DNA of 39,207 nucleotides, from NCBI GenBank assembly GCA_964369095.1, contig CAYJDV010000002.1:1-39207 (forward strand). The letters are read 5' to 3'. Below the pieces are notes generated by a model. That model saw nothing but the letters and a program-made list of their open reading frames with translations. It made no database searches and was not told the DNA's origin. Shown piece after piece: positions 1-18,408 of this stretch (within the stretch, counting starts at the first letter, position 1; each line of letters starts with the position of its first letter). The DNA comes from an uncultured Candidatus Saccharibacteria bacterium (GTDB lineage: Bacteria; Patescibacteriota; Minisyncoccia; Phycocordibacterales; UBA9973). The position numbers and the translations under genes were made by a program.

Positions 1-52
1 GAGAAGAAATAAAGAAAGCTAGTCAAGATGGTAAAACAAAACTCCAATTCCC
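1..52. repeat. 52-bp exact copy of the window end (39156-39207); circular-closure overlap
   Basis: Read directly: gagaagaaataaagaaagctagtcaagatggtaaaacaaaactccaattccc is present at both window ends. Unique length is therefore 39155 bp. Confidence 0.95.
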
Positions 53-2715: not shown

Positions 2716-2723
2716 TTAATTAT

Positions 2724-2891
2724 ATGGAATATCACATTGCACAAATATTAGAAAATAGAAACGATAGAGGAAGAGTAAAAGTATTAGAGGTCGGTGCTAA
2801 TACTATTGTTCTTTCGTCGGGTGAATTTACTGATGAAGTATTGGGAATATTTGGTTTTAGCGAAATAGAAAGGGATTATATAATTATTTAA
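2724..2891 (+). CDS. Hypothetical small protein (55 aa; below the track cutoff)
   Basis: ATG at 2724 and TAA at 2889-2891, translated by hand (MEYHIAQILENRNDRGRVKVLEV...). It fills the gap between the fibre and holin genes. Confidence 0.4.
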   Translation: MEYHIAQILENRNDRGRVKVLEVGANTIVLSSGEFTDEVLGIFGFSEIERDYIII

Positions 2892-2895
2892 AGTT

Positions 2896-3333
2896 ATGGA
2901 TAAGATAGAAATTACAGGACAATATATAACAAACGCATGCAGTAATTTTATTATTAAGTGTGTTGGTGTACTTTCCTTATATCTTATTCAATTTTCTTTT
3001 GGGGATATATCTCACATGGTTCTATCTGCCCTGTTTATGTTAATCCTGATAGATTTTTTGACAGGTATTTGGGCTTCAAAAATGGTTGGCGAAGAAATTA
3101 AATCTGCAAAAATATTTAGAACAGCATGGAAATTTGCACTATATTTTATAGTTGTATCATCTGGTCATTTTACAGAGGTTGTTGTTGGCTCTAATATGTT
3201 CTTAGATGAGACGATTATGGGATTTCTTGCCCTAACAGAATTATATTCAATTTTTGAAAACATGAAAAAGGCTGGATATGAGACACCGACAGAACTACTA
3301 AAAAATATAAGCAGTTTGATTAAGAAAAAATAA
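2896..3333 (+). CDS. Holin (Phage_holin_4_1 / toxin secretion-phage lysis holin-like)
   Basis: Four hydrophobic segments. The family-like signature LILIDFLTGIWASK ... LTELYSIFENMKKAGYETP is present. The gene sits immediately upstream of a lysin-like gene. Confidence 0.75.
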   Translation: MDKIEITGQYITNACSNFIIKCVGVLSLYLIQFSFGDISHMVLSALFMLILIDFLTGIWASKMVGEEIKSAKIFRTAWKFALYFIVVSSGHFTEVVVGSNMFLDETIMGFLALTELYSIFENMKKAGYETPTELLKNISSLIKKK

Positions 3334-4235
3334 TGAAAGTCCTACTAATCGTCAACAATCAAAAATGGAAGACTTGGAACTCAAAAATCCAAACCCTGAA
3401 AGATTGGTTCAAACCAGCCGTAGATTTAGAATTTACTTTAAGCCATGTTGATTTTAAAAAGATTCCATTTGTCCCAGTAGATAACGGAAAAGAAATCGAC
3501 CCAAAGTGGTACAACGAAAACATTCTTCCATTGGCTGGCGGTTATGACGTTGTAATGTTCTCTGTTCCACTTAAACAATGGAAAGGGGAAAAGATACGAG
3601 GTCGCTGGACACGTGGAGACATTCAAAAGATACAACTCGGTGCAGATGAATCAGGAACTTATGAATATAACAAAATAAAACATGAAGGAGGTCGTTGGTT
3701 TAATATTGCACGTCATGAACTATGCCACGCTATATCTGCGATACTTAAAATACAGGATAGAACGCATTATTGGTGGGAACTCGGAAACCTAGAACAAATA
3801 TTAAATGAATTTAAAGTCAAGAAAACTCCACCAATCGTTCTAATAGAAAGAAACACTAAAACAAAAAACCAAACTACTGGAAACTTAACGGCTATAAATG
3901 AGGGTGCCACATTCACGTGTAAAACTCTCGAATTAGCTGATAAGAATAACCAACAGAATATATCTTGTATTCCGTCTGGTGTATACAAAGTAGTATGGTC
4001 GTTTTCGCCGAGGTTTATGAAGTTTACTTATGAGATAACGGGTGTTAAAAATAGGAGTGGTATTAGGGTTCATTCTGGTAATTTCTTCACACAAATTAAT
4101 GGCTGTATCCTTTTAGGGAATAACTTAGTAGACATAAACGGAGACAAAGAGTTAGACGTTATCAATAGTCAAAAGACTATCGAATTATTCAATAATTTTA
4201 TGGGTAAAAAAGAATTTACTCTAATAATAAAATGA
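3333..4235 (+). CDS. Putative endolysin: N-terminal HExxH (RHELCHA) domain plus C-terminal DUF5675-like domain
   Basis: Start overlaps the holin stop. HELCH motif is present. The C-terminal pattern CKTLE...IPSGVYKV...SGIRVHSGNFFTQINGCILLG matches my recollection of DUF5675. Confidence 0.55.
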   Translation: MKVLLIVNNQKWKTWNSKIQTLKDWFKPAVDLEFTLSHVDFKKIPFVPVDNGKEIDPKWYNENILPLAGGYDVVMFSVPLKQWKGEKIRGRWTRGDIQKIQLGADESGTYEYNKIKHEGGRWFNIARHELCHAISAILKIQDRTHYWWELGNLEQILNEFKVKKTPPIVLIERNTKTKNQTTGNLTAINEGATFTCKTLELADKNNQQNISCIPSGVYKVVWSFSPRFMKFTYEITGVKNRSGIRVHSGNFFTQINGCILLGNNLVDINGDKELDVINSQKTIELFNNFMGKKEFTLIIK

Positions 4236-4414
4236 CAAAAAAAGTAACAAAGAAATGGTATCAAAGTAGAACAATCCAATTCGCAATTCTGACAGCAATC
4301 TTAACTGTTTTAATGGCGATTCAACAAGAAAACCCAGACATTGGATTCCTCGGTGTTTTGATTTCTCTAATCAACACACTACTTAGATTAGACACTTCAG
4401 AAACAATAAAGTAA
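4232..4414 (+). CDS. Small membrane protein (60 aa, two hydrophobic helices); lysis accessory candidate
   Basis: ATGA overlap with the lysin gene. Hydrophobic stretches TIQFAILTAILTVLMAI and IGFLGVLISLINTLL. Confidence 0.5.
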   Translation: MTKKVTKKWYQSRTIQFAILTAILTVLMAIQQENPDIGFLGVLISLINTLLRLDTSETIK

Positions 4415-4420
4415 TCCACA
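4412..4420 (+). promoter_or_regulatory. DnaA-box-like 9-mer TAATCCACA (1 mismatch), extends to TCCACAG
   Basis: Begins with the stop codon of 4232..4414. The TCCACAG end lies 29 nt upstream of the -10 at 4451. Confidence 0.5.
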
Positions 4421-4447
4421 GGTCAAGGGCTTTTCAGGTGTTCTGTT

Positions 4448-4456
4448 TGGTATAAT
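4448..4456 (+). promoter_or_regulatory. Extended -10 promoter element TGgTATAAT
   Basis: Read directly. It lies about 100 nt upstream of the ATG at 4557. Confidence 0.55.
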
Positions 4457-4470
4457 AGAAACGAGGTAAG

Positions 4471-4552
4471 GAGATTGGTGTGGGGTGGTCGATACCCTCG
4501 CCAACCTCTTTATCTCACACAGTTAAAAGTTTCTACGTAGCATAAACGTAGA
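4471..4552 (+). promoter_or_regulatory. Structured 5' leader of the transglycosylase gene (two hairpins)
   Basis: Hairpin 1 pairs 4471-4480 with 4499-4508, plus an inner helix ggg(t)/(a)ccc. Hairpin 2 pairs tctacgt (4532-4538) with acgtaga (4546-4552). It ends 4 nt before the ATG, and no SD is visible. Confidence 0.45.
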
Positions 4553-4556
4553 CCAA

Positions 4557-4964
4557 ATGGATTATAAATTAAAGTGGATATTGTTAATTGCCTTACTCGC
4601 AAGTATCCCCTTAAAAGCAATAGCAGAACCAAACGAGAGTATAACCCCTATCGTAGAAGTTATGCCTATCGACCCGTTATTTGAGAAAATAGCGTGGTGC
4701 GAATCTAAACACGTTTTAGACGCACAAAACTCTTATACTACCGCTGGTGGTGAGTTTCAATTTCTAGATGGAACTTGGAAATACTACGGGCAAAAGTATT
4801 GGGGCGAAGACTGGGTGAGTAAAGATAAATACTCACTCGATAATAGAGAACTAGCGTGGTATGTCTACACCCACTATGGTTCAGGCGATTGGGAAGCAGA
4901 CCCCAAATCACTTAACTGTTGGAAAGTAGAAATACCAAACGCAACCCATCGAAATATTTACTAA
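4557..4964 (+). CDS. Secreted Rpf-like (transglycosylase-like domain) muralytic protein
   Basis: N-terminal signal-peptide-like sequence (WILLIALLASIPLKAIA). IAWCESKHVLDAQNSYTTAGGEFQFLDGTW matches the AqCES...GglQF...TW transglycosylase-like signature. Confidence 0.7.
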   Translation: MDYKLKWILLIALLASIPLKAIAEPNESITPIVEVMPIDPLFEKIAWCESKHVLDAQNSYTTAGGEFQFLDGTWKYYGQKYWGEDWVSKDKYSLDNRELAWYVYTHYGSGDWEADPKSLNCWKVEIPNATHRNIY

Positions 4965-4969
4965 CAAAC

Positions 4970-4978
4970 TTATCCACA
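4970..4978 (+). promoter_or_regulatory. Perfect DnaA-box 9-mer TTATCCACA (inside a terminator stem)
   Basis: Read directly. Confidence 0.45.
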
Positions 4979-5000
4979 AGCGATTGTGGATTTTTGTTTT
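4972..5000 (+). terminator. Intrinsic terminator
   Basis: The 8-bp stem atccacaa/ttgtggat has a GCGA (GNRA) loop and is followed by ttttgtttt. Confidence 0.8.
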
Positions 5001-5011
5001 ATAATAAATAA

Positions 5012-5224
5012 ATGATTAACGGAAGCGAAATAATTAAACTACTAAATATAAACCGACAACAATTAAACTATTTAGTTTTTAATGATTTTATAATTCCCAA
5101 AATAAAAAGAAACTCAGTCCTGTCAGATTTATTTGATGAAAAAGATATTGAGATATTTACAAACAATAAAAGAAAATTCAGGAATAATTTATTAGCATTA
5201 GAAATAGAAAACGAATGGCGATAA
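5012..5224 (+). CDS. Hypothetical small protein, possible HTH DNA-binding (70 aa)
   Basis: Track ORF. The N-terminal SEIIKLLNINRQQLNYLV looks like an HTH, but this is a weak guess. Confidence 0.45.
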   Translation: MINGSEIIKLLNINRQQLNYLVFNDFIIPKIKRNSVLSDLFDEKDIEIFTNNKRKFRNNLLALEIENEWR

Positions 5225-5391
5225 GACCGATAAAATGTTTTGCAGTAATTAAAAACAATAAACTAGACGCATTTGAAATCTACAAAGACAAGGAAGTTGT
5301 TTTAAGCAAGGGTGAGACTTTTGTAAATGTTATAATTAGTGTTAATGAAAAAAACTTCGTTAAGAAGAAAATCAAAAAGTCCAATCGCTAA
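5215..5391 (+). CDS. Hypothetical small protein (58 aa), uncertain
   Basis: Hand-translated ORF (MAIRPIKCFAVIKNNKLDAFEIY...). It fills the 5225-5344 gap but overlaps the next gene by 47 nt. Confidence 0.3.
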   Translation: MAIRPIKCFAVIKNNKLDAFEIYKDKEVVLSKGETFVNVIISVNEKNFVKKKIKKSNR

Positions 5392-5803
5392 ACTACAACA
5401 AAAGCTAGTAGAACTTTCCCACACATACATAAGAGAAAGAGATAGCGTTATGGTTGGCGGGATTGCTGGTTATTGTTTTGACTGTGGGAATTTTGCAGAG
5501 GGTAGACATTTTCAAGCGGGACACTTTGTTCCAGACGCTTCAGGTGGTGCGATTTTAAGATACCACCCACACAATATGCACGGACAGGCAAGCGGTTGCA
5601 ATATGAAACAGGTTCAGGAAAGAGTAAAAATAAATTACACAATTAAAATGCAGGAAAAATATGGCATTGATTATTTTAACTTCCTACTCTCACTTAGGAA
5701 TAAAACAATTAAAGCAGATGAGATTTTCTATAACAAAATGATAGAACTTTACGAGAAAAAAGACGAAGACGCTATTGTGGAGTACTTACATTCCTTAGCG
5801 TAG
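5345..5803 (+). CDS. ninG: NinG-like recombination/nuclease protein
   Basis: CFDCGN...QAGHFVP...LRYHPHNMHGQASGCN matches the lambda NinG pattern (C..CG...qaGH...Rf...N.h.QC..CN). I prefer the ATG at 5345 over the track's GTG at 5339. Confidence 0.65.
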   Translation: MKKTSLRRKSKSPIAKLQQKLVELSHTYIRERDSVMVGGIAGYCFDCGNFAEGRHFQAGHFVPDASGGAILRYHPHNMHGQASGCNMKQVQERVKINYTIKMQEKYGIDYFNFLLSLRNKTIKADEIFYNKMIELYEKKDEDAIVEYLHSLA

Positions 5804-5885
5804 CTTTGGAACATACCTACAACGCCCCACAATGCGTTTTAAAGGGGTCAAAATAGCCTAATGTAGACTTTCCTGTAAAAAGGAG

Positions 5886-5911
5886 AAAACCCCTATAAAC
5901 GGGGTTTTTTA
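5886..5911 (+). terminator. Intrinsic terminator
   Basis: The stem aaaacccc/ggggtttt has a tataaac loop and is followed by a T-run. Confidence 0.8.
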
Positions 5912-5981
5912 TTGTCGGTTGTATCAAAATGGAGACAGCTTCATTACGCTGTTGAGAGGAAACCCCTCAATTATTATTATA

Positions 5982-6045
5982 ACACAAAATTAAAAAAGCC
6001 ATCAACCCACACTCTTGCAAAATCGGGCGAACCCATAGTGTGTTA
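5982..6045 (-). terminator. Intrinsic terminator of the minus-strand unit
   Basis: On the minus strand, catcaac...gttgatg and acacact/agtgtgg helices enclose a ggg-UUCG-ccc tip. The structure is followed by gcttttttaatttt. Confidence 0.6.
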
Positions 6046-6125
6046 ATAGTTGATGACTTAGCTAGTTCAGATAATGCTGATACACATATCACAAAAAGAT
6101 GCTAACTACAGAGCTTTCTGGTGTA

Positions 6126-6151
6126 GAATCGTTAGTCGCAAGACACGATTC
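6126..6151 (-). repeat. Conserved hairpin copy A (contains GTCGCAAGAC, 6135-6144)
   Basis: Outer stem gaatcg/cgattc, inner stem gtc/gac, 4-nt loop. The same 10-mer and the same architecture recur at 6749-6771. This copy is immediately 3' of the HNH gene on the minus strand. Confidence 0.7.
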
Positions 6152-6162
6152 GAATTATTTTA

Positions 6163-6555
6163 TTATACCATATTGTGGGGACATTTTCCACCATTTCTAA
6201 ATTTAGCTATATTGCAGTTGTAACACAATATTTGAAAATTATTTTTAGGAAAATTATTATCTCTCAACCATTTGTAAATATTTTGTTTAATAGAATCTCT
6301 ATGGATTTTGCCATCATTATTTATATGGTCTATGGTCAACGCCTCCTTCATTGTCTCACCGCAACAAACACAAATGTTACCGTATTTTTGAAATACTATT
6401 TGTTTTAATGGAATATCATATTCATTTTGAACCCCATGAACACAATTTTTACATTGAGCATGAAGTTTTTTTCCACCCCTTCTTAGTTTGTTGAAATGAT
6501 TTATTGGCTTAAATTCATTACACCTTGTACAAAATTTTTTACCATCTTTAACCAC
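6163..6555 (-). CDS. HNH endonuclease
   Basis: CxxC pairs plus LTIDHINNDGKIHRD...LCYNCNIAKF (H-N-H core). The track start is GTG. See the in-frame upstream extension 6556..6711. Confidence 0.8.
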   Translation of the reverse strand: MVKDGKKFCTRCNEFKPINHFNKLRRGGKKLHAQCKNCVHGVQNEYDIPLKQIVFQKYGNICVCCGETMKEALTIDHINNDGKIHRDSIKQNIYKWLRDNNFPKNNFQILCYNCNIAKFRNGGKCPHNMV

Positions 6556-6711
6556 AGATTTTATTAAAAACCTTGAATAACAATAATGTGAACAAAAAAA
6601 ATTACCAGATATGTTTTTATTTATTTGACTTAAGGTAACATACTTTGGTTTACTACATATTTTACATTTTTTTATTTTTCCATTTTTTGTTATGCAATAA
6701 TCATATCACAT
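6556..6711 (-). pseudogene. In-frame Cys-rich 5' extension of the HNH ORF, cut off by TGA at codon 2 (ATG-TGA)
   Basis: On the minus strand, AGGAGA-N10-ATG (6711-6709) is followed by TGA (6708-6706). Then come 50 sense codons (YDYCITKNGKIKKCKICSKP...CSHYCYSRFLIKS) in frame with the GTG at 6555, with no internal ATG, GTG or TTG. Confidence 0.4.
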
Positions 6712-6748
6712 TTTATTCTATTCTCCTAGCTATGACCACTTGATATAG

Positions 6749-6771
6749 TTTCCCTTGTCGCAAGACGGAAA
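6749..6771 (-). repeat. Conserved hairpin copy B (contains GTCGCAAGAC, 6757-6766)
   Basis: Outer stem tttcc/ggaaa and inner stem gtc/gac. It lies in the 5' UTR of the HNH cassette on the minus strand. Confidence 0.7.
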
Positions 6772-6782
6772 ACGTAATGTAA

Positions 6783-6794
6783 ATATTATACACT
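6783..6794 (-). promoter_or_regulatory. Promoter -10 block AGTGTATAATAT (minus strand)
   Basis: The reverse complement of 6783-6794 equals the 12-mer at 8161-8172. The TATAAT hexamer corresponds to 6790-6785. Confidence 0.5.
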
Positions 6795-6819
6795 AAAACC
6801 CCCACTTTAGGCAGGGGTT
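6795..6819 (-). terminator. Weak intrinsic terminator after the metallophosphoesterase gene
   Basis: On the minus strand, aacccc-N11-ggggtt is followed by tt. Confidence 0.4.
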
Positions 6820-6824
6820 AGAGT

Positions 6825-8048
6825 TTAGTAGAAGTGTGTTATTCGAGCAACTTGACCACCTTGTGGGTCAAAGATGAACGATTCCATTGCTTGGATATTC
6901 TTGTAACCGTTCGTGTAGTGCCACCTGTCTGGTGCTGATGGTGTTCTAACCATTTCCACATAGATAGAGGTTGACTGGTCGACTCCTTGTCGTGAGTGGA
7001 TTTCGGTGATGAGGTGTTTATCCTCCTCAACCATCTCCATACGCTTTGAACCGAGTGTCTTTACCCTCTTGTCTTTGTGGTGTCCGTGGTTAATCAACCA
7101 GTAGCCAAACTTAAACGCTACACCTCGTGCTTCAGTAAGCATAAGGTTTGGGAGGTCTGTTATCTTAGCTCCATCTCCGTGAGAGTAGCCAATCATATTA
7201 TTCCCGTAAACCAAATACTTACGATGTGTCATTGACGTGTGAAAAGACACGTTTTTTGACTTAGAGAACCAACTAACAACAGCGTCAGTTAGCATATACC
7301 CAGACATAAAGTCATGGTTCGATGGACAGAAGACCAACTTCACTGGTGCGTATTGAACAAGTTTTTCAATGGCTTGTATGTAGCACCTTTTAGCAATGTT
7401 GTAAGCTTCCCACCACATACCGTCTGTGTCTTGCGGAGTTCCTGCTGTTGTAGTTCGCTTTGGTGTGTCGATGTGCAAGATGTCGTTCCCAACAACGAAA
7501 ACAATTTGCTCAGGAGGAAATGGTAAGGACTTGGTTATTAGTCCATCAATTCCCTCGTTGAAGCGTTGCTCTGCTATTTTAAGATTGTAGCTTTCGCCAG
7601 TTTCTTCTTTTGCAGAGTATTTGCCAAAGTGTGGGTCAGCGGGGTTCACGTTCCAAAGATACTTTCCGCTGCCTTTATATTTGACAGCTGGATATTTCGG
7701 AGCGTGCTTTTTCATTTCCGCAATGAGGTCATCACGGATTTCTTCGTAGGTCATTACACCTTTTTCGTTGCGTATGAAAATCGAAGCATTGTCGGTTTTT
7801 AGCCAACCATGCGACCAATCTCCAGAGAAGCTATTAGCCTCAAGTTCAACCTCAAAGGTGCTTTTACCACCACCAGTAGCTCGTTGGAATCGCTTGCGAA
7901 CATTTTCTCCGCTCAGTTTTGTTCCGAACTTTGTGTTCGCAATTTCCGCCAACTCTGCATAGGTTTTTCCTCCTCCGACCTCCTTATTAAGAGCGAGTAG
8001 GAAGCTGTTTATGTCTTCTTGCTTGCTCATTTTATTTGTGCTTTTCAT
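6825..8048 (-). CDS. Calcineurin-like metallophosphoesterase (Mre11/SbcD-type motif set) with an N-terminal HTH-like extension
   Basis: The motifs occur in canonical order: ADPHFG (DxH), VVGNDILHID, PSNHDF (GNHD-like), YSHGDG, NHGHHKD (GHxH-like). The N-terminus contains YAELAEIANTKFGTKLSGENVRKRF. The true start may be the Met at 8030. Confidence 0.7.
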   Translation of the reverse strand: MKSTNKMSKQEDINSFLLALNKEVGGGKTYAELAEIANTKFGTKLSGENVRKRFQRATGGGKSTFEVELEANSFSGDWSHGWLKTDNASIFIRNEKGVMTYEEIRDDLIAEMKKHAPKYPAVKYKGSGKYLWNVNPADPHFGKYSAKEETGESYNLKIAEQRFNEGIDGLITKSLPFPPEQIVFVVGNDILHIDTPKRTTTAGTPQDTDGMWWEAYNIAKRCYIQAIEKLVQYAPVKLVFCPSNHDFMSGYMLTDAVVSWFSKSKNVSFHTSMTHRKYLVYGNNMIGYSHGDGAKITDLPNLMLTEARGVAFKFGYWLINHGHHKDKRVKTLGSKRMEMVEEDKHLITEIHSRQGVDQSTSIYVEMVRTPSAPDRWHYTNGYKNIQAMESFIFDPQGGQVARITHFY

Positions 8049-8050
8049 CT

Positions 8051-8059
8051 ATTATATCA
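8051..8059 (-). promoter_or_regulatory. Extended -10 TGaTATAAT (minus strand)
   Basis: Reverse complement of attatatca. It lies so close to the ATG at 8048 that Met-7 (8030) would have to be the start if this promoter is used. Confidence 0.4.
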
Positions 8060-8091
8060 TTGCGATATTTTAATAAAATTTCAACACTTTT

Positions 8092-8100
8092 ATTATCCCA
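8092..8100 (-). promoter_or_regulatory. Extended -10 TGgGATAAT (minus strand)
   Basis: Reverse complement of attatccca. It lies 39 nt downstream of the minus-strand TTATCCACAG motif. Confidence 0.4.
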
Positions 8101-8137
8101 CAAAATTTGACAACACAATAAATTAAATTGTTTAAAC

Positions 8138-8146
8138 TGTGGATAA
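8138..8146 (-). promoter_or_regulatory. Perfect DnaA-box 9-mer TTATCCACA (minus strand), extends to TCCACAG
   Basis: The + strand reads ctgtggataa at 8137-8146, in the divergent intergenic region. Confidence 0.5.
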
Positions 8147-8147
8147 C

Positions 8148-8172
8148 TTGACAAAAGGAAAGTGTATAATAT
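8148..8172 (+). promoter_or_regulatory. Promoter-like TTGACA ... AGTGTATAATAT (plus strand)
   Basis: TTGACA is at 8148-8153 and TATAAT at 8165-8170. The spacer is only 11 nt, so the -35 assignment is doubtful. The 12-mer is shared with 6783-6794. Confidence 0.45.
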
Positions 8173-8189
8173 GCACAAAGCCCTTAACA

Positions 8190-8393
8190 ATGAAAACAAC
8201 ACACCAAGTTCACAAGTGTAAAAATTGCAGAACCGAAATAGGAATTGCAATTACCACAATCGGCACACGCCGAAGTAAAATGAAAGCTTGGCTTTACTGC
8301 GAAGCTTGCTCGTTTCCCCTCGAAATTTGGTGGGACAGCAATCCGCAAGCAGAAGACCCAAGTCAAACCAACATGTTTGAACAAAACAGTTGA
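8190..8393 (+). CDS. Hypothetical small zinc-ribbon-like protein (67 aa), uncertain
   Basis: Internal ATG of track ORF 8139..8393, downstream of the promoter block. Contains CKNC ... CEAC. The stop lies 3 nt before the next start. Confidence 0.3.
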   Translation: MKTTHQVHKCKNCRTEIGIAITTIGTRRSKMKAWLYCEACSFPLEIWWDSNPQAEDPSQTNMFEQNS

Positions 8394-8396
8394 GCC

Positions 8397-8615
8397 ATGA
8401 GTAAGAAAAAGTTTCGCTTTGACTACCATCACCGAGTTCCTCAATCAAAAGGAGGAACTGACTTTTACCCTGAGGGCAACTTAGTACGGGTAAACAAAGT
8501 CAAACACGCACATTGGCATGCCCTATTCGCCAATAGAGACCTTGAGGACATTGTTGAAGAACTCAACAACCTCTGGATAGACCCACGTTTCAAACTCACC
8601 ATTGAACAACGCTAA
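8397..8615 (+). CDS. Small HNH endonuclease
   Basis: DYHHRVPQSKGGTD...N...VNKVKHAHWHALF is a typical short phage HNH signature. Confidence 0.8.
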   Translation: MSKKKFRFDYHHRVPQSKGGTDFYPEGNLVRVNKVKHAHWHALFANRDLEDIVEELNNLWIDPRFKLTIEQR

Positions 8616-8616
8616 C

Positions 8617-8709
8617 ATGGGAATCTTCTTCTGGCTCGCCTTCGTCGTTCTGATGTCGTGGGCAATCTCGCAACTTCTCTTCGGAAACCCTAAAAAGCCA
8701 CCCCGATGA
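8617..8709 (+). CDS. Hypothetical 30-aa membrane peptide, uncertain
   Basis: Hand-translated as MGIFFWLAFVVLMSWAISQLLFGNPKKPPR. ATGA overlap with the next ORF. Confidence 0.3.
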   Translation: MGIFFWLAFVVLMSWAISQLLFGNPKKPPR

Positions 8710-9059
8710 AAAACGAGAAAGTCATAACTCGTCAAATGTTCTGCGAGAGGTGCTTCAAAGCTAACCGACCATACAAAGACAACACGTTCATCGTTCGTGG
8801 AACCAAGGGTTACCACGTTAGAGAAGTGAACAAGTATGTCCCACCAGACAAGAAAGGTTTTACACCTCATCTGGTCGCAGCCTATAAGTTGCTCGATGAT
8901 AAAAACATCGCCATCAACAGGGTTTGCTGTATCGTTGGTTGTGGAGTTTCACTTAAAGACGATGTCTTCACTTATCTGAAGGTTTCCTATGAGCAAGTTC
9001 TGCTCTCTGATTGGAACGCCCTCGTGAAAAGTAAAGACCTCGGATACTACCTAGAATAA
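8706..9059 (+). CDS. Hypothetical protein (117 aa)
   Basis: Track ORF with ATG start, followed by tandem terminators. Confidence 0.55.
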   Translation: MKNEKVITRQMFCERCFKANRPYKDNTFIVRGTKGYHVREVNKYVPPDKKGFTPHLVAAYKLLDDKNIAINRVCCIVGCGVSLKDDVFTYLKVSYEQVLLSDWNALVKSKDLGYYLE

Positions 9060-9061
9060 AG

Positions 9062-9085
9062 CCCCTACCAATCGTGGGGGTTTTA
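9062..9085 (+). terminator. Intrinsic terminator
   Basis: The stem cccctac/gtggggg (one G-U pair) is followed by tttta. Confidence 0.65.
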
Positions 9086-9156
9086 TGATAGAATGTAAAA
9101 GTCCCAGTGGTCGCCGACCTTGGGGGTATTTCAATAAACGCCCTGTTCTCAACATC

Positions 9157-9183
9157 ACAGTCCTTCGGGGCTGTTTTGTTTTA
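9157..9183 (+). terminator. Intrinsic terminator with UUCG loop
   Basis: The stem acagtcc/gggctgt has a ttcg loop and is followed by tttgtttta. Confidence 0.7.
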
Positions 9184-9192
9184 TGCTAAAAT
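9184..9192 (+). promoter_or_regulatory. Extended -10 TGcTAAAAT, 6 nt before the ATG at 9199 (possible leaderless mRNA)
   Basis: Read directly. Confidence 0.45.
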
Positions 9193-9198
9193 ATTGAT

Positions 9199-9585
9199 AT
9201 GAAAAAAGAATTTTTTGGTATAAGTTACGACGTTGAAAAACACCATAAAATATACGGAGTAAAAACTATCCCCATTCCGCTATATAGATGTGAGATTAAA
9301 TTATTTTTTGGTAAGCAAACAGAAGAATTAGAAAAACTTTGGAAAAATGATTTAAATTATGATGGAAATGTTAGAGATTATTTAGATGAACACAGAGAAG
9401 TTGTAATAACATTCCCAATCAATAATCCAAACGTTGCGTCTGTGGTTCATGAACTATGCCACGCCACTCAAATAATTTTAAAAAATATTGGGCATAATTA
9501 TTATAATCAAAATTCTGATGAGCCTTTTGCATATCTTTTGACTTATCTAATTCAAGAATATCAGAAAATTAAAAAGTTTAAATAA
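9199..9585 (+). CDS. Minimal HExxH metallopeptidase-like protein (128 aa)
   Basis: VVHELCHATQ is followed by DEPFAY, with the Glu 24 residues after the first His. Same layout as 11101..11436. Confidence 0.55.
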   Translation: MKKEFFGISYDVEKHHKIYGVKTIPIPLYRCEIKLFFGKQTEELEKLWKNDLNYDGNVRDYLDEHREVVITFPINNPNVASVVHELCHATQIILKNIGHNYYNQNSDEPFAYLLTYLIQEYQKIKKFK

Positions 9586-9689
9586 TCTATGCTAAACTAT
9601 AATCACTAACTGCTCGACACAGTTGGTATTAAAATTAAGAAAACGGGGACTGAGCCTCGGTAAAATTTCTTAAGTTTAGGTAACAGACT

Positions 9690-9714
9690 TCCCCTAACGG
9701 GGATTTTTGTTTTC
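9690..9714 (+). terminator. Intrinsic terminator
   Basis: The stem tcccc/gggga has a taac loop and is followed by tttttgtttt. Confidence 0.65.
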
Positions 9715-9718
9715 CACA
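9710..9718 (+). promoter_or_regulatory. DnaA-box-like 9-mer TTTTCCACA, extends to TCCACAG
   Basis: Read directly, immediately after the terminator. Confidence 0.45.
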
Positions 9719-9761
9719 GGTTATGAACATTTCATAAAAATAAAATACAAAAAAGGTAGTA

Positions 9762-9770
9762 TGCTATAAT
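9762..9770 (+). promoter_or_regulatory. Extended -10 TGcTATAAT
   Basis: Read directly. No ORF follows it. Confidence 0.5.
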
Positions 9771-9776
9771 ATGTGG

Positions 9777-9908
9777 GTATGACAAAAGCAACAGATAATT
9801 TAATAGTAGCTTGCATAAGTTTTTTTTGTGTGCTAGTGTTCAGTTATCTTTTGTCATACAACAAAAGCAGAAAACTCGTAATTTTTTAATTGCGGGTTTT
9901 TTGTTTTT
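9777..9908 (+). ncRNA. Candidate ~130-nt small RNA (promoter, long hairpin, terminator)
   Basis: The 11-bp stem 9778-9788/9848-9858 plus a 4-bp extension (9795-9798/9844-9847). A 10-bp terminator stem (9874-9883/9888-9897) with two G-U pairs only forms on the + strand, and a T-run follows. No ORF is present. Confidence 0.4.
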
Positions 9909-10213
9909 AAAAATCAGATAGTAAGAGCTAGAAACTTATCGCTACTCTATAAACAACAAATGATAAATGGATTGTCTTTCGGGAATCGGTTGAAATCTTT
10001 TTTCAGCCCGTTAATCGGAAGATAATTCGCCTCAACATAAACGCTAGTTCGGAGCTACAAAGGGAGGACACTGTGAAAAACCATTCTTATCCTAAAAGCA
10101 AAACTGACACTGGGTAGTGATTCAGTCTATCGTGGAAGTTGAGGAGCTATCTGTACATATGATTTCATTCTGTTAAGGGTATTAACGGAATAAGGAACTG
10201 TTTTCAAAACACA

Positions 10214-10222
10214 ATATCCACA
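10214..10222 (+). promoter_or_regulatory. DnaA-box-like 9-mer ATATCCACA, extends to TCCACAG
   Basis: The TCCACAG end lies 29 nt upstream of the TAAAAT at 10253. Confidence 0.45.
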
Positions 10223-10252
10223 GATAAATTAAACAAACAAAAACATCTCTAG

Positions 10253-10258
10253 TAAAAT
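10253..10258 (+). promoter_or_regulatory. -10-like TAAAAT, 6 nt before the ATG at 10265 (possible leaderless mRNA)
   Basis: Read directly. Confidence 0.35.
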
Positions 10259-10264
10259 AGAGTA

Positions 10265-10540
10265 ATGAAAACAATATTTGAAACATTAAAAGACTTTCAA
10301 CTTCCTGTTAAATCTATTAAGAGTGAGAGAGCAGAAATAATTAAATCTTTCGTAGATGAAATAAATCTTGAAAGAAAAGATACTAAATGGAAACCTGTAA
10401 CTGGAAGAAGTGTAGCAATTCAATTAAGTGTTTTAAAAACAAACTTTGAACTTTACAGCTGGCTTTCACAATGCCGAGACTATAAAAACAGACACGGAAG
10501 TTTTAGCAGAATTTATTATGGTGCTTTAAAAAAGAAATGA
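10265..10540 (+). CDS. Hypothetical protein (91 aa)
   Basis: Track ORF with ATG start. ATGA overlap with the next gene. Confidence 0.55.
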   Translation: MKTIFETLKDFQLPVKSIKSERAEIIKSFVDEINLERKDTKWKPVTGRSVAIQLSVLKTNFELYSWLSQCRDYKNRHGSFSRIYYGALKKK

Positions 10541-10908
10541 CAATCAGTAAAACTAAATGGGTGAATATAAAAAACAAAATTAAGTACGGAGCTAATTGGT
10601 ATGGCAAAAAAGGAATGAGAGTAAAATTTGTAAAAATACTAATGGAAAAACAAAAAGGACTTTGTGTTGAATGTAAGGAAAAGATTTTGCATGGAGAAGA
10701 AACGGTAGACCACATTATTCCCGTTTCTTTAAATGGAAAACATGAGCTGGAGAATATGCAATTACTTCATAAGGGATGTCATTATAAAAAAGACAAAGAG
10801 CATAGTGATAAATTAGGAGCACTTGGAGGGGCTTTAAAACCAGAACGTGGGTCATATGATTACAAGCCAAACACCATAAAAGAAATTTACGAACACTATA
10901 AAAAATAA
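10537..10908 (+). CDS. HNH endonuclease
   Basis: CVECKEKI...VDHIIPVSLNGKHELENMQLLHKGCHYKK is a canonical HNH. Confidence 0.85.
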   Translation: MTISKTKWVNIKNKIKYGANWYGKKGMRVKFVKILMEKQKGLCVECKEKILHGEETVDHIIPVSLNGKHELENMQLLHKGCHYKKDKEHSDKLGALGGALKPERGSYDYKPNTIKEIYEHYKK

Positions 10909-10910
10909 CC

Positions 10911-11000
10911 ATGCACTCAATCTGCCACACATGTAAAAAGAAACTAAAAGTAATCTATTATTGGAAAGGTAAGTGCTATTGCGAAAAGCACAACAAATAA
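10911..11000 (+). CDS. Hypothetical 29-aa Cys-rich peptide, uncertain
   Basis: Hand-translated as MHSICHTCKKKLKVIYYWKGKCYCEKHNK (CxxC...CxC). Tightly packed with its neighbours. Confidence 0.3.
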   Translation: MHSICHTCKKKLKVIYYWKGKCYCEKHNK

Positions 11001-11001
11001 T

Positions 11002-11097
11002 ATGAAAAAGAAAACAGAAAAAATAGCAAAAGAAATAATCAAAAAATACGACAAGACATTTAAAGATTTAGGAGATTATGATAAGGGTAAGAAATAG
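11002..11097 (+). CDS. Hypothetical 31-aa peptide, uncertain
   Basis: Hand-translated as MKKKTEKIAKEIIKKYDKTFKDLGDYDKGKK. Confidence 0.3.
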   Translation: MKKKTEKIAKEIIKKYDKTFKDLGDYDKGKK

Positions 11098-11100
11098 TTT

Positions 11101-11436
11101 ATGAAAATAAAAATACCGCACATTGGATATACAGTTACAATACAAGATATAAAAACAGCCAAAGGAGAGGCTAGAGATTTTTTAAGTAAGGGTTACCTTG
11201 CATGTGCTCATAGAGTTGATTTAAATAATTCTACGATATACGTTACATTACCCATAAAAGTAAAAGACCATGCAACTTTGGGCCATGAAATAATCCACGT
11301 ACTTCAACACATTTGCGATTCAAGAGGAATTGAATTTATTCATGAACAAGAACACATCGCATACATTTATCAATACATATTTAATGAGGCAACGGGGTAT
11401 AAGTATGACTTTGATAGCTCACTAAGTAAAAGATAA
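11101..11436 (+). CDS. Minimal HExxH metallopeptidase-like protein (111 aa), paralogue-like of 9199..9585
   Basis: LGHEIIHVLQ is followed by QEHIAY, with the Glu 22 residues after the first His. Confidence 0.55.
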   Translation: MKIKIPHIGYTVTIQDIKTAKGEARDFLSKGYLACAHRVDLNNSTIYVTLPIKVKDHATLGHEIIHVLQHICDSRGIEFIHEQEHIAYIYQYIFNEATGYKYDFDSSLSKR

Positions 11437-11439
11437 TAG

Positions 11440-11448
11440 TTTTCCACA
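11440..11448 (+). promoter_or_regulatory. DnaA-box-like 9-mer TTTTCCACA, extends to TCCACAG
   Basis: Lies 4 nt after the stop of 11101..11436. The TCCACAG end is 38 nt upstream of the -10 at 11488. Confidence 0.45.
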
Positions 11449-11464
11449 GATTTAACCACCGCAC

Positions 11465-11493
11465 TTGACTTATCTATCCGTTAGATATATACT
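11465..11493 (+). promoter_or_regulatory. Sigma70-type promoter TTGACT-17-TATACT with a CTATCCGTTAG element in the spacer
   Basis: Read directly. The spacer element at 11474-11484 differs by 1 nt from the palindrome at 13738-13748. Confidence 0.65.
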
Positions 11494-11526
11494 CTAACTA
11501 TAAGATTATCAATAACAAATAAGTAT

Positions 11527-11667
11527 ATGAAATTAGGATATGTTGGTAGAGCTGGTGGTTTAATGGAATTTATCGCATATGCAATATGGTGCGAACAAGA
11601 TGCAACAAAGAAGGGTTTTAAGGTCGAAAAAGTATTTGATGATTTAAGCGGATATACCGCTCGATAA
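11527..11667 (+). CDS. Hypothetical small protein (46 aa)
   Basis: Hand-translated as MKLGYVGRAGGLMEFIAYAIWCEQDATKKGFKVEKVFDDLSGYTAR. It is the first ORF after the promoter. Confidence 0.4.
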   Translation: MKLGYVGRAGGLMEFIAYAIWCEQDATKKGFKVEKVFDDLSGYTAR

Positions 11668-11668
11668 T

Positions 11669-11818
11669 ATGGAAAAAGAATTAAAAGATTTACTAACTGC
11701 ATTAAAAGATTTAAAAGAAAATCTAAATGTAGCAGTAGAGAAGTTAGAAGAAGTGTTTCCTAAATATCCAGATGTATTTATTAGCGATAAACAAGAAGAA
11801 ATAAATGAAAACAATTAA
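11669..11818 (+). CDS. Hypothetical small helical protein (49 aa)
   Basis: Hand-translated as MEKELKDLLTALKDLKENLNVAVEKLEEVF.... It overlaps the ATG at 11805. Confidence 0.4.
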   Translation: MEKELKDLLTALKDLKENLNVAVEKLEEVFPKYPDVFISDKQEEINENN

Positions 11819-12155
11819 CATAAAAGGTAAGGACTATGTGCCAGTTGTGGAGCGAGTAAAACAAGCCCACGCTCAAGATAAAGAAGTGTCGATAACAACA
11901 GAAATAGTTGAAAGCGTGAATGATAGAATTTCTATAAAGGCAACAGTTGTATTAAATGGAAAAACTTTCACAGGACACTCTCAGGCAAGGTACCACGAAA
12001 AAATGATGGGTGAAGTTGCATTAGAGATAGCAGAAACTTCAGCGATAGGTAGAGCATTAGGTTTCGCTAACATAGGTCTACTAGACGGAATAGCCAGTGC
12101 AGATGAAATGAGAAAAGTAGGAAAGAAAGACGATGACGAACAAGAACCTTTTTAA
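11805..12155 (+). CDS. Hypothetical protein; possible Rad52/Sak-like annealing-protein core
   Basis: KGKDYVPVVERV ... AETSAIGRALGFANIG resembles the Rad52-family pattern (Y..v..R... aEt.A.kRAl..fGiG). The protein is short, so confidence is low. Confidence 0.35.
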   Translation: MKTINIKGKDYVPVVERVKQAHAQDKEVSITTEIVESVNDRISIKATVVLNGKTFTGHSQARYHEKMMGEVALEIAETSAIGRALGFANIGLLDGIASADEMRKVGKKDDDEQEPF

Positions 12156-12172
12156 AAATTAACTTAAATAAC

Positions 12173-12433
12173 ATGATAAACGGATTTACAATTTTCAAAG
12201 TAAAGGAACACGACGGAGACGAGAAGAAACCAACACACAGTATCTCAGCTAAAGTAGGAGAAGAATTTATCTATATTGGAAAATGCTGGACAAAGACAAA
12301 AGGCGACAACAAGTATCTAAGTTGCTCACTCGACAAACCTTACCAAGATAAAAAGGGCTACAAAGTAGTTGAAGAAGTAAACAACGCAAACAAGGGCCCA
12401 GATGAAGTAGCTAATGGTATAGACGCCTTCTAG
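12173..12433 (+). CDS. DUF736-like protein (86 aa)
   Basis: FTIFKV...KKPTHSISAKVGEEFIYIGKCWTKTKGDNKYLSCSLDKP follows the DUF736 pattern (pdyri....eiGaaW.k.s..g..ylsv.lD.P). Confidence 0.5.
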   Translation: MINGFTIFKVKEHDGDEKKPTHSISAKVGEEFIYIGKCWTKTKGDNKYLSCSLDKPYQDKKGYKVVEEVNNANKGPDEVANGIDAF

Positions 12434-12478
12434 GACGCCCATATTAGCCCCTAAAATCGTTTATAACGCATAAAAACT

Positions 12479-12826
12479 ATGAAGTTTATACTACCTGCAA
12501 TAATTAATCCTCCGAGGCTTAGAAAGGACAAATCTTGTTCGATTTCGTTCGACACAAGAGAGCTGTCTTCTGAAGAGTTGTTCACGATAATTTCCTTGTC
12601 TCAAAGTGAAGGATGGTTAGCTTTCCAACCGAATGAGGAAAATATTGAAATACCCACAGAGCGTGCAGAAGTAGATGAAAAAACACCAAGTGAACGCCTA
12701 AGAGCGTGCCTATACGTTTGGTTCAAACAAGAATCGGACAAAGGCAAGTTCACAGGCACATTTGAGACGTTTAAGAAAGAGAAATACGAGAAAATAATCG
12801 AAGGAGTTAAAAGTAAATTAGATTAG
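12479..12826 (+). CDS. Hypothetical protein (115 aa)
   Basis: Track ORF with ATG start in the same-strand array. No motif recognised. Confidence 0.55.
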   Translation: MKFILPAIINPPRLRKDKSCSISFDTRELSSEELFTIISLSQSEGWLAFQPNEENIEIPTERAEVDEKTPSERLRACLYVWFKQESDKGKFTGTFETFKKEKYEKIIEGVKSKLD

Positions 12827-12828
12827 CT

Positions 12829-13029
12829 ATGGATAAAATTAAAAGTCTAGGCTGGTTGTTTCGCTCGCTAATACTTCATTCTGACGGAATATGGACGGCA
12901 AAAGCTATCACAGGACAATACAAAGAGCATGTTAATTCAATCGAAGTTATCGGAAAGACACCCGAAGAAGCAGTAGATAAACTAATTGAAAAACTAGAAG
13001 CTAAGGGACTTTTAAACGAATCATTATGA
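12829..13029 (+). CDS. Hypothetical protein (66 aa)
   Basis: Track ORF. ATGA overlap with the next gene. Confidence 0.5.
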   Translation: MDKIKSLGWLFRSLILHSDGIWTAKAITGQYKEHVNSIEVIGKTPEEAVDKLIEKLEAKGLLNESL

Positions 13030-13313
13030 AAAGAATTAAATGCAAAGACGTACTACTCGACTACATACAAACCCACGAAGGGTGGTTGAAGAAAGTAGAC
13101 CTGTACAAAATAGCAGAAGAGTTTAGCCCTGAAACCGCAGGAAGAGCCTTACGTCTTTTAGCCGAAGAAAACAAAATACAAGTACAGTATTACGATAGTA
13201 AATACGCAAAGAATCTAGCAATGTACTCACGTATAGGAGAAGCACCAAAGAAGTTTGAACCAAACATTATTACTAAATCAGACGGAAGTAGAGTTTTATT
13301 AGTTAGAGAATAG
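13026..13313 (+). CDS. Hypothetical protein (95 aa)
   Basis: Track ORF with ATG start. Confidence 0.55.
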   Translation: MKRIKCKDVLLDYIQTHEGWLKKVDLYKIAEEFSPETAGRALRLLAEENKIQVQYYDSKYAKNLAMYSRIGEAPKKFEPNIITKSDGSRVLLVRE

Positions 13314-13315
13314 AT

Positions 13316-13516
13316 ATGGAGAAAATAAAAATATTATTTTGGAAAACATATGCGATATTCTGGGATTTACGACCAAGAATACACTTACCAAAATATTCTG
13401 ATTATCCTATTGCAAGCACAGATATTGCCAAAGAATATGAGTATCCCGAATGTATTAAAGTTTTATTTGAATGGGACGAAAAAGGAAAACATTGGATAGT
13501 ATTTAAAAGAAAATAA
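13316..13516 (+). CDS. Hypothetical protein (66 aa)
   Basis: Track ORF with ATG start. Confidence 0.5.
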   Translation: MEKIKILFWKTYAIFWDLRPRIHLPKYSDYPIASTDIAKEYEYPECIKVLFEWDEKGKHWIVFKRK

Positions 13517-13519
13517 TTT

Positions 13520-13705
13520 ATGAATAAAGAACAAGAAAAAAAAGCAGTACATTCTGCAATAGATGCAGGAGAGATACCCTCACCAGAAGAAATCAGTAGA
13601 GTTATGTCTTGGCTATCAAAGAAAAACAAAATGACAAAAGCAGAGAGAGTAGCAAGAGCTAAGAAGGCTGGAATAGCGGGGGCATTAAAAAGGTGGGGAA
13701 AATAG
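13520..13705 (+). CDS. Hypothetical basic protein (61 aa)
   Basis: Track ORF with ATG start. Confidence 0.5.
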   Translation: MNKEQEKKAVHSAIDAGEIPSPEEISRVMSWLSKKNKMTKAERVARAKKAGIAGALKRWGK

Positions 13706-13714
13706 TTATTTGAG

Positions 13715-13723
13715 TTATCCACA
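13715..13723 (+). promoter_or_regulatory. Perfect DnaA-box 9-mer TTATCCACA, extends to TCCACAG
   Basis: Lies 9 nt after the stop of 13520..13705. The TCCACAG end is 30 nt upstream of the -10 at 13755. Confidence 0.5.
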
Positions 13724-13731
13724 GTTAATGC

Positions 13732-13760
13732 TTGTGTCTATCCGATAGCTATGATATATT
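13732..13760 (+). promoter_or_regulatory. Promoter TTGTGT-17-TGaTATATT with the palindrome CTATC-C-GATAG in the spacer
   Basis: Read directly. The palindrome is at 13738-13748. Confidence 0.6.
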
Positions 13761-18246: not shown

Positions 18247-18357
18247 ATGAAACCCATCGGCACAGGCACAATAAAAGGAGAGAGGTATGAGGTGTTTAGA
18301 GATAAAGACAAGGAACTTTATATAGAAAAAGTTACTAACACGAAATCCACATTTTAA
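18247..18357 (+). CDS. Hypothetical small protein (36 aa)
   Basis: Hand-translated as MKPIGTGTIKGERYEVFRDKDKELYIEKVTNTKSTF. The stop lies inside the terminator. Confidence 0.3.
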   Translation: MKPIGTGTIKGERYEVFRDKDKELYIEKVTNTKSTF

Positions 18358-18372
18358 TATTGTGGGTTTTTT
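18345..18372 (+). terminator. Intrinsic terminator
   Basis: The stem atccaca/tgtgggt has a 9-nt loop and is followed by tttttt. The stem contains AAATCCACA. Confidence 0.6.
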
Positions 18373-18408
18373 GCTATTATATAAGTATTACAATAATCTA
18401 TTTAAGTT

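Follow-up and report, generated by a model that had tools for sequence, protein, structure and literature searches.

We found that a short motif with the sequence of a DnaA box heads almost every transcription unit of the non-structural half of a circular 39-kb phage genome. This genome is the 39,207-nt contig CAYJDV010000002.1 (hereafter the window, meaning the whole stretch of DNA analysed), which was binned into a metagenome-assembled genome (MAG) of a Candidatus Saccharibacteria bacterium. The copies of the motif, which we call boxes and number 1 to 7 along the window, are co-oriented with the units they head and helically phased with the -10 hexamers of these units at 4451, 5000, 8097 (minus strand), 9765, 10253, 11488 and 13755, and a degenerate copy heads the unit at 18375. 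This arrangement suggests that the phage uses the DnaA protein of its host to switch its own gene expression and not to start replication. We put the probability at roughly 55% that host DnaA binds the boxes close to the promoters, where it would probably act as an activator; most of these promoters have no good -35 element.

Boxes are concentrated in intergenic DNA and point along transcription

Perfect copies of TTATCCACA lie at 4970-4978 (+), 13715-13723 (+) and 8138-8146 (-), and one-mismatch copies start at 4412, 9710, 10214 and 11440; the original prediction, made from the letters of the window, had given the same positions, and a recount found all of them correct. At one mismatch or fewer, TTATCCACA has 21 matches in the window where 12.2 are expected, and the shorter word TCCACAG has nine where 3.15 are expected. 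Both excesses held against shuffled controls, with none of 100 shuffles reaching either count. Intergenic DNA makes up 3,990 nt, or ~10% of the genome, and contains six of the nine TCCACAG copies (binomial p = 7e-5), in agreement with the six intergenic copies claimed previously. Each of the six points toward the gene that follows it, and this also holds for the one minus-strand copy, which lies before the exonuclease gene on the same strand. The three genic copies that had also been pointed out (27511-, 27870+ and 36046+) are present, at the number expected by chance. An unbiased screen of all 7-mers in the window returned ATCCACA as the top intergenic-enriched word (seven intergenic against two coding copies, p = 3e-6), level with the -10 word TATAATA and with terminator words.

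Counted from the final G of TCCACAG, -10 hexamers follow at 29 nt (TATAAT, 4451), 29 nt (TAAAAT, 10253), 30 nt (TATATT, 13755), 38 nt (TATACT, 11488) and 39 nt (GATAAT, 8097-), which are the five distances first reported, while the sixth copy, at 9710, lies 45 nt from TGcTATAAT. The copy at 4970 ends in A, not G, and is followed by TATAAT (5000) 21 nt downstream. Two terminator stems had been described as built from the word ATCCACA, and both proved to be real hairpins, at 4972-4991 (z = -5.5) and from 18345 onward (z = -5.1). Each is trailed by a -10 hexamer 21-23 nt after its box, and the hairpin boxes therefore belong to the same promoter series. The binding site consensus of DnaA domain IV is TTWTNCACA; five of the seven promoter copies fit it, and the other two deviate only at position 1 or 2.

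The layout recurs in related phages

Relatives (L numbers below) were chosen solely by homology to the phage exonuclease, without reference to the motif, at 67-44% exonuclease identity, and up to half of each of their contigs was covered. Across the window and seven relatives (136.6 kb) we found 41 matches to TTWTNCACA. Intergenic DNA, 11.7% of this sequence, holds 23 of them (p = 9e-12), and 21 of the 23 run in the same direction as the gene they precede (p = 3e-5). The box and its layout recur at orthologous positions as well: box 3 (8146 on the minus strand of the window) is kept ahead of the exonuclease gene at L088:370 and L091:9907, and the hairpin box at 4970 is kept in L088 (3366). A more distant IMG/VR relative, L005 (47% G+C), carries five perfect copies of TTATCCACA in 11.5 kb. 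IMG/VR exonuclease relatives at 31% identity or less, which have 57-71% G+C, showed neither TTATCCACA nor its high-GC variant above control and were uninformative. Further relatives were sought by other routes. A megablast of the region against cultured-phage records gave no match, searches of IMG/VR with the clamp-like and 604-aa proteins returned no relatives, and the 604-aa protein had no match in 400 genomes of the host's order. In L088, the DNA directly upstream of the hairpin box (3343-3400) holds three tandem TATACAC(A) words (GTGTATACACTATACACTAAACTATACACAG), an array that is absent from the window.

Boxes and -10 hexamers are held in three registers

For the spacing analysis we defined a strong -10 hexamer as one with at least five of six matches, including A2 and T6, with a bonus for a TG extension. 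Counted from the 9-mer, strong -10 hexamers stand downstream of intergenic boxes at 21 nt (four cases), 30-32 nt (ten cases) and 40 nt (two cases). The background frequency of such hexamers is 0.0034 per position, which gives p = 5e-14 for the 30-32 nt class. A reverse test that started from all 109 strong intergenic -10 hexamers and required CACA alone upstream returned the same peaks, and nearly every CACA in a peak sits within a full TT(A/T)TCCACA. As a hold-out, three further relatives (L221, L222 and L223) were fetched once the distance classes were fixed. L222 has five perfect co-oriented boxes, each directly past a stop codon and four of them at 29-31 nt, and the single box of L221 lies at 31 nt and is accompanied by a good -35. 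No boxes are present in L223, whose replication genes are of the T4 type. The strict co-orientation, the phased -10 distances and the conservation of the layout, including in a held-out relative, support promoter control, one of the roles for which the original prediction had proposed that the phage recruits host DnaA.

Taking the -10 hexamer as positions -12 to -7 puts the centres of the boxes at about -38, -48 and -57, of which -48 is the main class. Boxes 6 and 7 are accompanied by -35 hexamers TTGACT and TTGTGT, and most promoters of the 30/31-nt class have zero to three of six matches at the -35 position or a terminator hairpin there. At window 4970, L091:464, L222:11156 and L222:13838, the terminator hairpin of the preceding gene occupies the -35 position itself. 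The window also contains box-less extended -10 promoters, at 9089, 9187 and 9598 (each after a terminator) and at 8165, and these likewise have no good -35. As judged from promoter sequence, a poor -35 combined with an upstream box would be in keeping with promoters whose activity requires a protein bound upstream.

We also considered whether the pattern could be a by-product of chance or composition, such as the reuse of terminator-stem words. Two copies are indeed arms of terminator hairpins, and a generic sigma-70 consensus scan of the region found matches no commoner than in shuffles. The shuffles, the intergenic and orientation binomials and the phasing statistics nevertheless reject this explanation, as does the independent recurrence of the pattern in relatives and in the held-out L222, and we regard its probability as negligible.

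The box has the sequence of a high-affinity DnaA box

The 23 boxes recovered by the CACA-only reverse test have C at position 6 in every case, T at position 4 and C at position 5 in 17 of 23 each, and A or T at position 3 in 19 of 23, positions 7-9 having been fixed by the search word itself. This variation, loose at positions 1-3, 5 and 10 and fixed at 4 and 6-9, matches TTWTNCACA at the level of sequence. Read directly from Escherichia coli K-12, oriC box R4 is AGTTATCCACAGT and R1 is TTATCCACAGG, and both extended words match those of phage copies; the copies at 8146(-), 13715, L088:370 and L102:8828 read AGTTATCCACAGT, as does R4. The dnaA gene of the MAG, which is taken to be the host from binning only, lies on contig C12, and the exact DnaA sequence was absent from the collection searched. 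The dnaA promoter carries cTATCCACAGGTTATTAACA immediately past TATAAT, and the spacer between dnaA and dnaN contains box-like words. In five genomes of the host family, TTATCCACAGnTTATnAACA adjoins dnaA; phage box 4 reads TTTTCCACAGGTTATGAACA. Domain IV of the MAG DnaA aligns to 1J1V (the E. coli domain IV-DNA complex; E = 1e-14) and to 8BTG, and keeps GGKDHTTVIH within the motif pattern RQ...GG(K)DHTTV(I)H. The likeness to a DnaA box noted at the outset is borne out by the consensus match, the R1/R4 flanks, the dnaA promoters of the host family and the canonical domain IV. By its sequence, the motif is a canonical high-affinity DnaA box, (AG)TT(A/T)TCCACA(G)(T).

The most likely reader of the box is host DnaA

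We looked for proteins that might read the box. Searches of the window and of the covered parts of close relatives (Pfam in six frames at E<=10, phmmer and a custom profile) found no ORF (open reading frame) resembling DnaA domain IV, a search of the window for a sigma-like reader was negative, and no other recognisable DNA-binding protein was found in it. No early protein is common to all box-bearing relatives. With neither a phage ORF resembling DnaA domain IV nor a shared early protein, host DnaA is the simplest candidate. Relative L100 (54% exonuclease identity) encodes at 6651-7124 a 157-aa protein with HTH_3 and sigma-70 region-4 matches, which has no homologue in the window or the other relatives.

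Several observations weigh against host DnaA as the activator of these promoters. The -10 assignments rest on consensus match, several of them on consensus only, and some spacings fall outside the three classes (45-46 nt twice, and three other distances, including 26 and 34 nt). In an IMG/VR-wide sample of TTATCCACA-N15-45-TATAAT, the spacing histogram was nearly flat, with weak peaks only, and viruses in general therefore do not share the layout. Outside the phage contig, the host MAG (553 kb, 58 boxes) has no -10 enrichment at 21, 31 or 40 nt, and this lack of a preferred distance indicates a device of the phage's own, without a model in host promoters. Phage and host are linked by binning and similar G+C only, and comparison of the phage with the rest of the MAG gave no CRISPR-spacer or att-like match, only chance matches of 18-19 nt. 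The IMG/VR record G002/L003 (46.8 kb, terminal repeats; 44% exonuclease identity) encodes two DnaA-domain-IV proteins, tandem small ORFs of 116 and 105 aa at 19150-19804 with little beyond the domain, so that the wider group does include a phage with a putative reader of its own for such boxes. Given the box-less extended -10 promoters at 9089, 9187 and 9598, the box promoters could also be a later class that needs a phage product.

These points bear on a rival explanation, in which a factor other than host DnaA that shares or mimics its specificity would read the box and mark a class of phage middle promoters. Possible candidates are an injected or early phage protein, an unrecognised fold like that of DnaA domain IV, a 67-aa Zn-ribbon protein of the phage and a second DnaA_C protein of the host. 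The absence of the box layout from the host chromosome and the DnaA_C-only proteins of G002/L003 speak for such a factor, and the four box-less promoters, including that at 8165, could be its immediate-early counterpart. The Zn-ribbon ORF (8190-8393, +; CxxC...CxxC) is the first gene of the rightward arm, divergent from box 3, and is conserved and syntenic with box 3 in L091 (51%) and L088 (31%). It has no homologue, however, in the covered parts of the box-bearing relatives L093, L100, L102, L222 and L005, and no significant Pfam match, hence none to the Ogr/Delta family. The host paralogue (MAG contig C9, ~6250-6980; L086:1426-2154, minus) is a 242-aa protein with its DnaA_C domain at residues 152-218 and a 122-aa ORF adjoining, but DHTTV is replaced by EHTRV and the paralogue was not found in five genomes of the host family. 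The lack of a DnaA_C-like ORF in the window and close relatives and of an early protein shared by all box-bearing relatives also counts against another reader, and flanks identical to those of E. coli R1/R4 are more readily accounted for if DnaA itself is the reader. We therefore consider this explanation rather unlikely. The original prediction had offered, as its alternative, a phage-specific element that merely resembles a DnaA box; the host chromosome without the layout and the distant relative with DnaA-domain-IV proteins keep part of that proposal alive, while the sequence identity favours DnaA.

Activation would explain the phasing better than repression

We propose that the box, on one helix face relative to an extended -10 promoter and pointing along transcription, would be bound by the host's own DnaA through domain IV. 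Bound DnaA would then contact RNA polymerase and supply the upstream contact that the missing -35 does not give. Early and middle transcription of the phage would in this way depend on how much DnaA is present or on its ATP state, and DnaA is an essential protein that the host cannot discard. Near 8140, where transcription diverges, a single box could favour leftward transcription of the exonuclease gene and at the same time lie over the -35 zone of the promoter that points right. We infer both the binding of DnaA and the sign of its effect, activation.

The opposite sign deserves consideration, as DnaA is reported to act at promoter-proximal boxes both as activator and as repressor (nrdAB, lambda pR; PMC8203912). 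DnaA can stabilise RNA polymerase, as at low levels at nrdAB, or block it, and its nucleotide state tunes the effect (PMC8203912). DnaA might bind the phage promoters and silence them, either to keep a carrier state quiet or to let early promoters be shut off upon its displacement or titration. Repression by DnaA is known from many promoters (PMC8203912); the boxes of the 21-nt class overlap the -35 zone, which is the usual position for repression, and box 3, read in reverse, lies over the -35 zone of the promoter at 8165, which points rightward. The box at the host's own dnaA promoter, just downstream of TATAAT, is likewise in a repressing position. A steric block needs neither helical phasing nor a fixed orientation, yet both are strict in the phage; the main class is centred near -48, outside the core contacts of polymerase, and most -35 hexamers are poor or have given way to hairpins, as would be expected of promoters that need an activator. 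Because repression would leave the phasing unexplained, we disfavour it and think it unlikely.

Boxes are single and dispersed, unlike those of an origin

We next weighed a role in replication, for which the 679 nt without ORFs at 9586-10264, flanked by boxes 4 and 5, might be the site, or in titrating DnaA so that the host does not initiate. No polymerase, primase, helicase, initiator, repressor or sigma factor was recognised among the window genes (Pfam and PHROGs searches of early ORFs), and the stretch between boxes 4 and 5 is the longest non-coding one and carries a small, predicted transcribed hairpin unit. Phages and plasmids do use DnaA boxes, as in the transcriptional activation of the lambda ori (PMC8203912) and the box clusters of T5 (bioRxiv 10.1101/866236). 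About eight high-affinity boxes per copy would also titrate DnaA upon phage replication. Against both roles, the boxes form no cluster: they are single, 0.5-3.7 kb apart with at most two within 560 nt, one per promoter, and a -10 hexamer accompanies every box at a phased spacing that an origin does not need. GC skew shows only coding-strand bias and no origin signal. A box pair with GC spacer, DnaA-trios and an AT-rich unwinding element were not noticed on reading the flanks, where no formal trio scan was run. Bacterial oriC has the same box word and flanks, those of E. coli R1/R4, whereas here there is no cluster and one box stands at each transcription unit. The idea of replication initiation in the original prediction is not supported by these single, dispersed boxes, and the argument from missing replication genes fails across the clade, since L091 (DnaG-type zinc ribbon and helicase) and L099 (Toprim-DnaB) have their own primase/helicase and keep the same layout. 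Replication or titration is, in our judgement, an improbable purpose of the boxes, although some titration of host DnaA may occur as a side-effect.

Comparison with known promoter classes

DnaA is an occasional transcription factor, and phages borrow it at origins; our literature searches found no report of phage promoters built on phased DnaA boxes. In lambda, the DnaA boxes lie downstream of pR. Promoter classes defined by an upstream box are known from T4, whose middle promoters have a MotA box at -30 that acts with AsiA, and from P2/P4, whose late promoters have a site for the zinc-finger proteins Ogr/Delta near -55; in the MotA and Ogr classes the reader is a phage protein. By the same working logic, a short box here would stand in for a weak -35 ahead of an ordinary -10 and mark out a class of promoters, but the box has the sequence of the host initiator's site and occupies three helical registers instead of one. 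Pfam and PHROGs searches of the early ORFs gave no homologues of MotA, AsiA or Ogr.

DnaA-regulated bacterial promoters (E. coli nrdAB and dnaA; the Bacillus subtilis and Caulobacter regulons; PMC8203912) resemble those of the phage in having a 9-bp box near a sigma-70-type promoter. In the phage, by contrast, boxes head most transcription units, singly, strictly co-oriented and at three phased positions, most of the promoters have no good -35, and DnaA binding is predicted from sequence; the chromosome of the presumed host showed no promoters of this class. Among phages, lambda pR and the paired boxes of T5 come closest. Host DnaA stimulates lambda pR, and contact with RNA polymerase is the reported route (Szalewska-Palasz et al. 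1998, as cited in PMC8203912); this is likewise a phage promoter under the kind of stimulation that we propose here. Lambda has one such promoter, which serves ori activation, whereas this phage has about eight, each with an upstream phased box and no associated origin. In T5, the injection-stop region has eight DnaA boxes at one locus, in pairs 3 bp apart within inverted repeats, which are proposed to anchor the DNA at the membrane (bioRxiv 10.1101/866236). Consensus or near-consensus boxes in non-coding phage DNA across a clade, with a proposed use of host DnaA outside replication, are common to both phages; the boxes here differ in being single, dispersed and each tied to a promoter.

Almost nothing is known of transcription control in uncultured phages of tiny-genome bacteria. 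If DnaA is the reader, the boxes would be a simple coupling of the programme of a regulator-poor phage to the growth and replication status of its host, and dependence on an essential host protein would close an easy route to resistance. The signature box-N30/31-TAnnnT could then serve to find promoters, and perhaps hosts, of such phages, and the system would offer a clean natural setting for the contact between DnaA and RNA polymerase. Tentatively, and at somewhat less than even odds, the phage clade may have made host DnaA the obligatory upstream activator of a promoter class in which the box, in three registers, replaces the -35, and some relatives may encode DnaA-domain-IV proteins that take over the same sites. 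Early phage expression would in that case read the replication-initiation state of the host, with hosts that are probably ultra-small and Patescibacteria-like.

Individual box promoters

Box 1 (4412..4421, +; TAATCCACAG) starts at the stop codon of ORF 4232-4414 and lies 29 nt (30 nt from the 9-mer) upstream of TGgTATAAT at 4448-4456. The TG-extended -10 hexamer TATAAT (4451..4456) belongs to the promoter of the transglycosylase-like gene 4557-4964, and the -35 position reads GGCTTT, which is no match. Box 2 (4970..5005, +; TTATCCACAA) is the 5' arm of the terminator hairpin 4972-4991, which a T-run follows; its TATAAT occupies 5000-5005, 21 nt from the box, and its orthologue is that at L088:3366. 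The degenerate box (18343..18380, +; AAATCCACA) is likewise the 5' arm of a terminator hairpin with a T-run, and lies 23 nt from TGcTATTAT (18375-18380), ahead of the structural-gene block. This unit is a paralogue of 4958-5005, and TTACTAACA precedes both. Taken more widely, the paralogous units span 4948-5005 and 18322-18380 and share the order (T)TACTAACA, 2-3 nt, box-armed terminator hairpin, T-run and -10 hexamer; the first precedes the NinG operon and the second the structural block.

Box 3 (8137..8146, -; TTATCCACAG) stands in a divergent control region. On the minus strand it lies 39-40 nt upstream of TGgGATAAT (8097-8092), ahead of the exonuclease gene 8048-6825, and, reversed, it lies 18 nt from the plus-strand TATAAT at 8165-8170 that heads the Zn-ribbon ORF. 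Box 4 (9710..9719, +; TTTTCCACAG(G TTATGAACA)) follows immediately past the terminator 9689-9703, with its promoter TGcTATAAT (9762-9770) 45-46 nt downstream, predicted to give a short hairpin-terminator transcript without an ORF. After TGcTATAAT, the segment 9762-9910 contains a long imperfect hairpin (~9777-9860) and then a terminator (~9875-9910), with no ORF. From its sequence, the promoter of box 4 looks like one that drives a small non-coding transcript, which has no Rfam match; Rfam gave no match anywhere in the window.

Box 5 (10214..10223, +; ATATCCACAG) lies 29-30 nt upstream of TAAAAT at 10253-10258. The ATG of ORF 10265-10540 comes 6 nt past this hexamer and has no Shine-Dalgarno sequence, and the mRNA of this ORF is therefore probably leaderless. 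Boxes 6 and 7 have the more complete promoters. Box 6 (11440..11493, +) consists of TTTTCCACAG, 15 nt, a -35 TTGACT (11465-11470), a 17-nt spacer and a -10 TATACT (11488-11493), and box 7 (13715..13760, +) of TTATCCACAG, 7 nt, a -35 TTGTGT (13732-13737), a 17-nt spacer and TGaTATATT (-10 at 13755-13760). The spacers contain CTATCCGTTAG at 11474-11484 and CTATCCGATAG at 13738-13748, respectively. These are the only two copies in the genome of a near-palindrome, CTATCCG(T/A)TAG, and both begin 0-3 nt from the -35 hexamer; we regard it as a candidate operator for a second regulator.

Phage genome and presumed host

The window is the entire contig C2 of the MAG (592 kb, 74 contigs, 88.6% complete). 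Genomes of the MAG's order range from 0.5 to 0.9 Mb, which places the presumed host among the ultra-small bacteria of the Patescibacteria type. Window positions 1-52 and 39156-39207 form an exact 52-nt terminal overlap, by which the 39.2-kb molecule assembles as a circle, and across the joint the large ORF 35924-39207 continues into ORF 3-731. Nearly all genes are on the plus strand; the minus strand carries only an HNH gene (6163-6555) and the gene for the 407-aa exonuclease (6825-8048). Genes recognised near boxes encode a holin, a DUF5675 lysin, the transglycosylase-like protein, a NinG/Rap nuclease and HNH proteins.

The 72-aa protein encoded next to the Zn-ribbon ORF, at 8397-8615 (+), was considered as a regulator or reader of the box and rejected, its motif being that of a mini HNH protein (DYHHRVPQSKGG...N...HAHWH). 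It is the product of the third HNH-type gene of the 39-kb genome, and its 70% identity in L091 exceeds the conservation of the exonuclease. In the MAG itself, contig C13 has three co-oriented box variants within 3 kb of host DNA (879-4010), two reading TTATACACA and one TTATGCACA. Two of them lie 27-28 nt from TATAAT, and this stretch may be another mobile or regulated cassette.

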